Source: Curvularia clavata (lineage: Eukaryota). From it: a stretch of DNA of 64,000 nt. Below the pieces are notes generated by a model, which ran no database searches, was not told where the DNA came from, and was given only the letters and a program-made list of their open reading frames with translations. The stretch spans positions 558,001-622,000 of the forward strand of contig CP089276.1 of NCBI GenBank assembly GCA_023920165.1, written 5' to 3'. Position numbers and translations under genes: made by a program. The first letter of the stretch is position 1. The number at the start of each line of letters is the position of its first letter. Shown here piece after piece: positions 28,343 to 31,529 of this stretch.

Positions 28343-28746
28343 GGCTACAGCAGGCGGTCAGTTGCAAACCCGCCTGTGCTGTAAAAAATAAAACGTAGAC
28401 GTATCTTACGCAGCGCCGGCGACCACATGCGCCAGAGGCCAGATGGATGCGCGCATGCCCCCACACGTGTGCCATTGGGTGGGGGTCCCCGGTCCGCACG
28501 TGATGACGCGCTTCAATCATCATTCTACCCTATTTCTTCGCGACACCACCACGCTAGCGCTGCCCGCGTTCACCTCCGCGCATCAAATCCTACGCCTATC
28601 GCATCCGTATGGCTACGTCCAGACTGCTTTTCCTTTCGTCTCTCTCCATGTTACGTCTATCTTGCGCCGCACCCTAGGCGCATCACAACACCCTCAGCCA
28701 AGAGCAGGTATGTAACGCACCAATCATAAGTGACGCGTATTCTATT

Positions 28747-28929
28747 TGCATGATGACCACTGGTAAAAGGTTAGATCGCAAATCCTTGTGACGGTTTACC
28801 TTTGCCACTACTGTCTGGCACCCTGCATCCCGGCTTCGTGCCCGTCTGTACCTGCCTGCAGTAGGGGCAAAGGAGGGAACCTCCAATGGAGCGAAATGCT
28901 GCTTTAATAAACTGAAAAGACCTGATGCA
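28747..28929 (+). ncRNA. Candidate intronic box C/D guide RNA (scaRNA-like) predicted to methylate U2 snRNA
   Basis: Box C ATGATGA 28750-28756 and box D CTGA 28922-28925, closed by a TGCA/TGCA terminal stem. 15-bp internal hairpin; 13-nt antisense to U2 just upstream of box D; lies in putative intron 28708-29002. Confidence 0.72.
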
Positions 28930-29034
28930 TCCTATTTTGTCCACTTGCCGCCCACAGAATTCCATTGCTGAATGGAGAGCTGATCCACATATACTGTGCT
29001 AGGTGTATACTTTGCTGCTGTCGAGAGCTTCCAG

Positions 29035-31529
29035 ATGGGAAACACAAAACAATGGCCATCGTATCCTAAAACCAACACCAACTTCACAAAGCGAATTCAA
29101 GCTAGCCAGAATGGGAATCCAACACGGCAGTGGCGTGAGATATCACCACCCCCACTCAAGCGTAGGCGGACAGCATACGAGGAGCCGCACAGAGGACAAG
29201 ATTCCACGAGCCTGGCAACTCTTCATACAAGCAACAGGTATTGTTTATCGAGATGTTGTATAAAGCTTTGACTAATTTACTTCCGTAGCTTGCTAACGCC
29301 AGAATCTCGCAAACCTGCTTGCCGAGTATGCGACAAAACCACGAGCACCAGTTACAATCCAGTCATTACCTGTCCAGGATGTGCTAGGCCATACCATGAC
29401 AGTTGCCGGAAGCCACCGTTACCCCAAGGAGCAGACCCACAATGTTGGAGATGCTCAGCATGTGCAAATTGCAGTAGAAAGCCTCTCGAACCCATGCTGT
29501 TGTCAAAGTCAGTTCTGGTCAGAAGTTCTGTGGTGGTGAAGAACATTTCTACGCCACCATATGCACGAAGCCCGATCGCCCACTCAGCTAAATTGTCCGA
29601 TGGCACTGCTCTTGGTAGGAAGGTCCATGTCCAGACCTTTCGAGCTAGCACTATAAGTGCCAGGCGTTTAGGAAGTTTAGATAGTCCTAGGGAAGACTTT
29701 GAGTCGTCTCTCCAATCTGACCATTCAGAAAACCTCGGCACGCCTGCGCGCTGCCCAACCCGATTTCTTCATCTTGAATCCTCATCTCAGCAGCATCATA
29801 TTCAAGCTCGGACTGGCCTGTCCGCCACCAGTTCTTCGGTTCGAGCACAAAGTCGTACTCCAGATGCTCCTTGTTCGGATTGTCGTCAAGCTTCCTTCGT
29901 AGTGAGACCTGGCGATGAGAATCCTCGGTGGTACGCAGAAAAGTTCATGGATGCTGGAAAATGCTGACCTGTTTGCAGTCAGAGTTGTCGATGTCGAAAT
30001 GAATCCCATGTGGAAGAGATGAGACGCTTAGAGATACCCGAGACTCCCAATGCTGCTGTGCCTTGCGACATCCTCCATTTGATGAGCAGCGCAGAATCCG
30101 TAGCCTCTCAGATTTCACACAGTCCAACCGCTGGAGCCGAAAGGCCTTCCTGGATTGCTCCGAACCGAACCGGCACAGAGCCACTAGGCAAAGAACAGCA
30201 GCGCGAGAAAGACCATTGGAAACCCGGCATATCAAAAGCAACATATAAGGAAGATACCCAAATACGTCTTCCGGCACGACGTCCCTATGTGCTCTCTACC
30301 GACGATGCAACCGCGCGGACATCACATTCAAAGCAACAAGAGCCGTGCACTACGAGTTTGGAGAACTCTCCTAAGACTGGGAACTTACTTGTGCCTCGCA
30401 ATGTTTCTACTTCTCCAGAGGTAGATGATGCAAGTTTACACGTGCCTCATACCAATCGTGAGCTGGCGAGGATAGCCCTGGTCTGTGCGAATGGGTCGAG
30501 TATGTCAGCTCCTCAGATCATTGATTGGCTAGTGCGACGGTTTCCCTACCTTCAACAGGAGCAGGGCCTTTGGGAGAAGAGTCTAAAGGCGACTCTCCCA
30601 CTCAAAGAGTTTCGCAGCAACAAAGTTACGGGATTGGGTGACATCCGTGTGGTGTACAGCTTTGCTAATGAAGTATACAAGACTCGGTATGAAGAAGAAT
30701 ACCGTGACTATATCACTCACTATTCGCATGAAGATTCGCAACAGCAAATTTCCCGGCTAGATGCTGTAGAGTCCACTGGCGATGTTCTTGAGACTACCGA
30801 GAACATACCAGAGCAGCACAGCAGAGTTCGTGCAGGGGAGACAGTCGAGAACGCACCTGCAAGGTATGCCGAAGATACTTGGGGGAACATACCGAAAAAT
30901 ATAGCGTATAGCCAGCAATCCGCAGCCTTGTTCATCCCATCACCAGCAAGCACCAGCTCCGACGACGACACAGCACCCTGCCCCTTCAAACCAACTAGAC
31001 TTTCTCTTACTAGAAGCAAGACTGAGTATGCTGCTGAAATCAAGCGCGAGACCAGCTTTCACAAAGCATACCCTCGTAGCATTCGGACGTCACTCGAGAT
31101 GATGACCGCAGAAGAGAAGGCCAGGAAAGTGACAGAGATCAGGGCGCGGCCTTCTCGGAAGCAGTTGATTGATTCTGGCCAACGACTAGCCCATGTCCGA
31201 AGGTACAGACGACAGGATGCCCATGATGAAAGCGAGGGGGCGTGGAAACCCCAATCAGTGGAGGCAAAGGAGAAGCCAATGAAGGGTGCTAGCGACTGTG
31301 ATGAACCCCGGTCTCTACACGAAGTCTTCCGGCTGCCGACCAATGCTGTACCCATGTTGCACGAAGGAAATGAGCTTGCTTTTAGAGACGGAACGATGGT
31401 CAGTGAGGCGATTGCGACGCTTGTCGATCGATATGTTAACAATGTGAACAGGTCAATGGCCGATTACCACGACCGCGACGAATCTACAGGGTGGGCAAAC
31501 GGTTGGGAGCTGGGCTTACAGTCAATTAA
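29035..31529 (+). CDS. PHD-finger protein with an extra Cys4 motif and a degenerate forkhead-like domain; introns 29238-29288, 29931-29978, 31399-31451 (start uncertain)
   Basis: CRVC..CPGC..HDSC..WRCSAC (C4HC3). The splice sites join the ORFs in frame. Confidence 0.72.

Follow-up and report, generated by a model that had tools for sequence, protein, structure and literature searches.

The window, meaning the whole 64,000-nt stretch of Curvularia clavata DNA analysed, holds a short non-coding element between two genes. A kinase-like gene lies upstream on the minus strand (Pfam Pkinase, E = 3.7e-14), and a gene with a PHD finger lies downstream on the plus strand (E = 8.8e-06). The element (28747-28929) is predicted to form a mature RNA of the box C/D type, about 183 nt long, and lies on the plus strand like all the parts described below. 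Its limits are drawn from its boxes, flanks and homologues, and are approximate, the RNA contigs that match it covering only 28760-28921.

The host intron and its RNA contigs

The earlier note had described the RNA as intron-encoded, and the intron is directly observed. A 268-nt RNA contig of run X19 covers 28582-28705 and 29001-29144 and splices out the 295 nt in between, which hold the element and end in GT..AG. Reading the joint 28705->29001 as GT..AG shifts the cut by +2 and sets the intron at 28708-29002. A CUGAU at 28980-28984, 17 nt before the 3′ splice site, is the predicted branch point by its match to the consensus. Judging from the reading frame, the PHD-finger protein appears to start at the ATG at 29035, 32 nt past the 3′ splice site, and the open reading frame indicates that the host intron is probably a 5′-UTR intron of the PHD-finger gene. 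Exon 1 of the leader of this gene also carries a short upstream open reading frame (28609-28677, +, ATG...TAG, 22 codons), which falls inside the part covered by the spliced contig (28582-28705). A second intron of the PHD-finger gene is predicted at 29238-29288 (+, 51 nt, GTATTG ... CTAAT ... TAG), since it is needed to join the frame of ATG 29035 to the PHD-finger open reading frame.

Run X20, an oligo-dT RNA library, provides only two contigs that match a 901-nt stretch of the locus. Both cover 28760-28921 and lie inside the predicted RNA, while the flanking intron and exons of this stretch are without cover. The two contigs stop at the same two coordinates. The first (depth 3.6) matches the window letter for letter, and the second (depth 12.3) is a variant that departs from it by 17 substitutions and 4 gaps, a difference of about 13%. 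Because X20 holds two versions of the RNA, two related fungi seem to be present in the sample. The 14 listed substitutions and the 4 indels of the variant all fall within 28798-28905, which corresponds to the internal hairpin and the spacer, and the paired changes 28813 G>A and 28859 C>U convert a G-C pair to A-U. No difference in the D guide occurs among these 14 of the 17 substitutions; the other three may lie near the contig ends and may overlap the D′ guide (28762-71) or the D guide, and guide identity in the variant is therefore not claimed. The ends, strand and level of an RNA are not visible in contigs, and run X20 is the only source of the two element contigs; their confinement to 28760-28921 is directly observed and provides a hint of RNA accumulation. 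Runs X21 and X22, from other organisms, yielded no contig aligned at 80% identity and are uninformative either way.

Conservation of boxes, guides and internal hairpin

Homologues were sought by a metagenome scan with a pattern composed of TGATGA, a gap of 137-167 nt and then AAACTGAAAAGANCTGA, which left the 5′ half free. The scan matched 21 loci, eight of which are syntenic homologues representing four distinct sequences (L003=L005=L009=L019; L006=L017; L016; L018). The other 13 (L001, L002, L004, L007, L008, L010-L015, L020 and L021) have neither the D′ tract nor synteny and were dropped as chance matches, so that the box and guide pattern alone is unspecific. The conservation counts below refer to five distinct sequences, namely the window and the four distinct homologue sequences.

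Synteny is directly observed. The kinase-like gene lies upstream on the opposite strand with 86-94% amino acid identity over ~260 residues in six loci, and with 98% identity over 127 residues in the truncated L006; the L003 contig stops short of the gene. The PHD gene lies downstream in seven of the eight homologues, the L009 contig ending before it. Within the non-coding DNA between the kinase-like and PHD genes, blastn aligns the RNA region and nothing else, and in the more diverged types (L016; L003=L005=L009=L019), it aligns only the two RNA ends. All five distinct sequences are intronic: in each, a GTAWGT donor precedes box C by 43-51 nt, a CTRAY branch motif follows box D at 48-55 nt, and a YAG lies at +73 to +77. 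Processing of intronic box C/D RNAs is reportedly favoured when box D and the branch point lie some 50 nt apart (Hirose and Steitz). The assignment to the box C/D class is upheld by the invariance of the boxes and by the constant geometry of the intron in all five distinct sequences.

Direct reading of the sequence places box C (AUGAUGA) at 28750-28756 and box D (CUGA) at 28922-28925, exactly as claimed before. All seven positions of box C are invariant in the five sequences, its TGATGA being forced by the search pattern and its leading A free, and both box D and the D guide are likewise forced in the homologues. The terminal stem proposed to close the RNA is less secure: TGC (28747-49) does face GCA (28927-29), yet the stem amounts to only 3-4 bp and is unconserved. 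Across the five sequences, the flanks read TGC/TGC/TTC/TGC/CAC on the 5′ side and TGCA/TGCG/TTCA/TTCA/AAAG on the 3′ side, with a stem of 3-4 bp in the window and L016 that is weak or absent in L017, L018 and L005.

Two antisense tracts lie next to the boxes. The D′ antisense element ACUGGUAAAAGGU (28759-28771) is invariant at 13 of 13 positions in all five sequences, a count unconstrained by the search pattern. It abuts a D′-like box at 28772-28775, which the alignment of the five sequences gives as UAGA, or CAGA in one homologue. In front of box D, a 13-nt tract had been reported; TAAACTGAAAAGA is indeed present at 28908-28920, one base (C28921) ahead of the box, but only 12 nt are common to the homologues (AAACTGAAAAGA, 28909-28920), and this shared part is retained here as the D antisense element (AAACUGAAAAGA in the RNA). 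Position T28908 varies (T/A/C/C/T) and therefore belongs to the guide of the window only. The antisense geometry is thus that of a D guide of 12-13 nt ending 1 nt before box D and a D′ guide of 10-13 nt abutting D′. The D guide itself holds a CUGA (28911-28914), which is dictated by the UCAG of U2, and an automatic box C/D finder could consequently accept it as box D and assign the wrong target.

At the place expected for a C′ box, ahead of the D-guide spacer, AAAUGCUGC is invariant at eight of nine positions. It contains AUGCUGC (28896-28902), a conserved motif two positions off UGAUGA, which is a candidate degenerate box C′ by its position. With AUGCUGC as C′ and YAGA rather than CUGA as D′, the internal pair is non-canonical, and the internal RNP half-site may be weak. 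The surroundings vary far more among the five sequences: 0 of 11 positions of the spacer before the D guide are invariant, the base separating the D guide from box D reads C/T/G/G/G, and the mean identity of the internal hairpin is 0.56. As identity of the D guide in homologues is imposed by the search pattern, its conservation is a biased count; it is nevertheless kept exactly in L005, whose adjoining spacer has no invariant column, which argues for constraint. Conservation in syntenic loci, suggested earlier as a check, is thus borne out for the boxes, for the D′ guide and for hairpin covariation (see below), but not independently for the D guide, whose identity was forced. That conservation exceeds chance is confirmed by the 13 of 13 freely varying guide bases, the 8 of 9 of AAAUGCUGC and the covarying hairpin, all set in otherwise unalignable DNA. 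The conserved 5′ block had zero matches in the genome contig and viral contig collections.

Between the two guides, the RNA is predicted to form a long irregular hairpin (28776-28894) closed by UCGC/GCGA, as given by the consensus and by five separate folds. The stem first described, 15 positions at 28799-28813/28859-28873 with one A.G mismatch, is present and also appears in the minimum free energy fold (-60.7 kcal/mol, z = -2.45, 5 of 200 shuffles as good). It is, however, only part of the longer hairpin of 119-125 nt, which has the same topology in all five separate folds (-44 to -53 kcal/mol). The RNAalifold consensus comprises 39 pairs, in which 89.5% of cells are paired vs 35-45% when the partners are slid, and double-sided changes occur in 16 pairs vs 1-6 when slid. 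For four of the five measures, none of 500 shuffles reached the observed value, and for the count of further pair types, 8 of 500 did; these figures are inflated, as the same five sequences had served to derive the structure. Nine invariant RNAalifold pairs, which joined the box C flank to AUGC and the D′ guide to itself, were removed before counting because they would occlude the guide. The internal hairpin covaries, as directly observed in these counts. Inside this otherwise fast-evolving hairpin, one helix, G-GAYGGUU with ARCCUCC (28787-28797/28879-28886), is invariant in the five sequences, and may be a protein-binding element, a localisation element or an extra pairing site. A vertebrate-type GU repeat is not evident in the five folds by a crude test, the longest RU/UR-type run being 4-8 nt with none at a conserved apical site.

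These observations bear on the view that the conserved feature is a cis-acting intronic structure, regulating splicing or expression of the PHD host and releasing no stable trans-acting RNA. Such a function would suit an element that always occupies the same 5′-UTR intron of the same gene and whose strongest structural signal is a long hairpin. Yet the invariant parts are the unpaired tracts and not the hairpin, canonical C and D boxes bracket the element, the RNA contigs cover it without the rest of the intron, and no complementary site was found elsewhere in the 64-kb window beyond chance. Altogether, this makes a purely cis-acting role very improbable.

As to whether the family was already known, Rfam gave no match at the gathering score anywhere in the window, and no family of the SCARNA28/mgU2-47 kind, if Rfam 15 includes it, was matched at E <= 10. 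A mir-3121 match to the hairpin (14.3 vs 108 bits, among matches at E <= 10) was rejected, and the homologues gave sub-threshold matches only (IRES_Bip, ceN27, L19 leader and UPD-PK), regarded as chance.

Predicted targets in U2 and U5 snRNA

The D guide is complementary to UCUUUUCAGUUUA. In S. cerevisiae U2, the printed nt 31-78 contain ...GUAGUAUCUGU-UCUUUUCAGUGUA... (PMC4712673), and UCUUUUCAGUUUA is identical at 12 of 13 positions, with one mismatch, to nt 45-57 (UCUUUUCAGUGUA) of this yeast, not host, U2. Vertebrate and S. pombe U2 numbers lie one below those of S. cerevisiae (PMC5733568), so that yeast U48, the nucleotide opposite the fifth paired base A28917, corresponds to U47 in human. 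Sequence complementarity thus favours the target named in the earlier note, i.e., U2 at the human/S. pombe U47 equivalent by the D+5 rule. The predicted U2 target tract would read UCUUUUCAGUUU(A), 3′ of GUAGUA. Fungal U2 was sought with 23 nt of the printed yeast sequence, with zero matches in the genome and viral contig collections. The human mgU2-47 guide, as taken from the printed probe, is AAACUGAUAAGA (PMC4041459). The window D guide corresponds to the 12-nt register UCUUNUCAGUUU of this printed guide with one change (guide U vs fungal A), and this single difference is compensatory, human U2 reading UCUUAUCAG vs UCUUUUCAG in yeast/fungal U2.

The U2 element of the earlier, single-guide reading is supported, but that reading was incomplete: it overlooked the second antisense tract, 28759-28771, upstream of the D′-like UAGA. 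The first lead to its target came from a weak Rfam alignment to SCARNA5/6 (RF00478), in which 28748-28785 align to the 5′ end of the SCARNA6 model with 9.3 bits against a gathering score of 68 (E = 2.7), skipping 229 of 265 model positions; this alignment was not recovered in the homologues. In it, GUAAAAGGU-CUGA represents the U5 guide and D′ box, and the UAGA of the window aligns to CUGA. Within the D′ element, GGUAAAAGGU complements the U5 loop I consensus GCCUUUUACY, which covers only 10 of the 13 conserved guide bases and is a consensus, not the U5 of the host. The outer guide bases ACU would require U5 to continue ...AGU, where yeast U5 presumably has CCAG; the predicted U5 loop I target tract would accordingly be GCCUUUUACC(AGU). 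The conserved U5 loop I reads UGCCUUUUACY (PMC6679479), and human U5 is marked from position 37 to 45 as Gm C C U Um U psi A Cm (PMC4824092). The fifth base upstream of D′ (28772-75), A28767, faces the U equivalent to human Um41, a mark assigned to scaRNA5/6 in a review table (PMC7960923).

The register of the two guides is relevant to two other readings of a real box C/D RNA. It is unlikely, though deserving of weight, that only one guide is functional, either the U2 (box D) or the U5 (D′) element. The degenerate C′/D′ pair (YAGA, AUGCUGC) and the forced conservation of the D guide in homologues would fit such a single guide, as would the statement of the fungal snoRNAome paper that single guides make up most box C/D families of fungi (40 of 68 being "true" ones). 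Conversely, the D′ tract is invariant throughout, and the register of the D′-like box puts its fifth base exactly at human Um41; moreover, several N. crassa snoRNAs are depicted with UAGA or CAGA as their D′ box (PMC2780460, supplement 4). The D guide, for its part, shares the 12-nt register of mgU2-47 as printed and is kept exactly in L005, the most diverged homologue.

Less likely still is a box C/D snoRNA that in truth acts on rRNA or other RNAs and matches U2 and U5 by coincidence. This reading draws on N. crassa CD49, whose guide for 26S-Um2682 has a similar core, ACUGAAAA (PMC2780460), so that the rRNA of a related fungus matches the D guide over 8 bp. By hand alignment, however, this match has 8 contiguous pairs vs 12-13 for U2, and it selects a different nucleotide. 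In addition, two independent tracts, by the +5 rule, both hit nucleotides that are methylated in human snRNAs, and neither the length nor the long hairpin is typical of the listed fungal guides for rRNA, which measure 70-130 nt (PMC2780460, PMC2377427).

It thus appears probable that the element is an intron-encoded box C/D double guide of about 183 nt for U5 and U2. Under this double-guide reading, the RNA would be released from the 5′-UTR intron of the PHD-finger gene after splicing and would join the usual box C/D proteins, among them the methyltransferase fibrillarin/Nop1. Its box D element would pair with U2 just 3′ of the branch-point recognition sequence, where the human U47-equivalent uridine, at the fifth paired position, would be 2′-O-methylated. 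The D′ element would pair with the invariant U5 loop I, and the human U41-equivalent uridine, again fifth, would be modified in the same way. The long covarying hairpin would lie between the two halves, an arrangement also found in the intronic box C/D scaRNAs of vertebrates.

Significance and comparison with known guides

Fungal spliceosomal RNA modification is known mostly from budding yeast, which has very few marks, and from fission yeast. For a filamentous fungus, the double-guide model predicts 2′-O-methyl-U at two specific snRNA sites, both of which are also methylated in humans and both of which would hang on one intron. One deletion would then strip two spliceosome RNAs of marks, which would offer a handle on the role of conserved marks in a genetically tractable system. 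The element also shows that fungi possess the kind of build known from vertebrate box C/D scaRNAs, with a long hairpin and an intron as host. More broadly, the evidence allows, as a tentative and rather doubtful proposition, that this RNA is an old bifunctional scaRNA-type guide of filamentous ascomycetes for U5 loop I and for the part of U2 beside the branch-point recognition sequence. If so, the Um47 and Um41 marks, together with a dedicated snRNA-modification route, would predate the fungus-animal split and would have been lost in budding yeast. The invariant helix G-GAYGGUU/ARCCUCC could likewise be a fungal-specific localisation or assembly signal, standing in for the vertebrate GU repeat or CAB box in organisms without classical Cajal bodies.

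The element is most likely of a known kind, a box C/D snRNA guide; "scaRNA-like" refers to its architecture and targets only. Guides for U2 had been called poorly described in filamentous fungi. This needs qualifying, as N. crassa CD29, which guides U2-Am31 as seen by primer extension (PMC2780460), and A. fumigatus Afu-191, a ~90-nt intergenic RNA predicted for U2 Am32 (PMC2377427), are in print, but neither targets position 47. Their authors liken both to human SCARNA9 (PMC2780460, PMC2377427). CD29 and Afu-191 resemble the present element in being fungal box C/D RNAs predicted to methylate U2, and differ in their target (A31/A32 instead of U47), in their ordinary size and in that their second guide, if present, is for 5.8S rRNA. 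Four snRNA sites are listed for N. crassa, namely U6-Am47, U5-Am62, U2-Gm183 and U2-Am31, the first three from predicted guides (PMC2780460), and the A. fumigatus paper states that no C/D RNA targeting U1, U5 or U6 was found (PMC2377427). Neither of these published lists includes a U2-47 or U5 loop I guide (PMC2780460, PMC2377427). The main text of the fungal snoRNAome paper mentions U6 as the only snRNA target, the targets of all families being listed in its supplements, and literature searches on fungal scaRNA or U2/U5 guides returned nothing closer.

Arabidopsis provides a plant comparison for the U5 site. RiboMeth-seq detects U5 Um44 within the marks G40/U44/C48 (PMC8053127), which, when set here against human G37/U41/C45, is taken to correspond to human Um41; Table 3 of that paper gives no guide for Um44 and no site equivalent to U2 U47. 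Methylation of the Um41 equivalent in a plant suggests that the mark is old.

The closest counterpart for the U2 half is mgU2-47/SCARNA28, as judged from its printed probe and description (Marnef et al. 2014, PMC4041459). This intronic box C/D RNA is 189 nt long and has a single major internal hairpin, and the antisense element at its box D pairs with the same 12 nucleotides of U2 to select U47. Its host is TRRAP intron 2, and not the 5′-UTR intron of a PHD-finger gene; it is presented with a single antisense element, whereas the fungal RNA has a second, U5-directed one; and its Cajal-body signal is a GU/UG-repeat terminal stem-loop, which is not evident in the fungal RNA.

SCARNA5 and SCARNA6 are composite C/D-H/ACA RNAs. 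For the U5 half, they (U87/U88) show the same arrangement as the fungal RNA, in which box C is followed by the GUAAAAGGU tract and by a D′ box that sets U41 of U5 at the fifth position. They are longer (~265 nt vs ~183 nt) and have CUGA as D′ instead of YAGA. A review table also assigns U4 Am65 to scaRNA5 (PMC7960923), which makes it a double snRNA guide too, for U5 and U4, while the second target here is U2. In humans, the U2-47 and U5-41 functions reside on separate RNAs, SCARNA28 and SCARNA5/6, respectively; in the fungal element, both would be carried by one.
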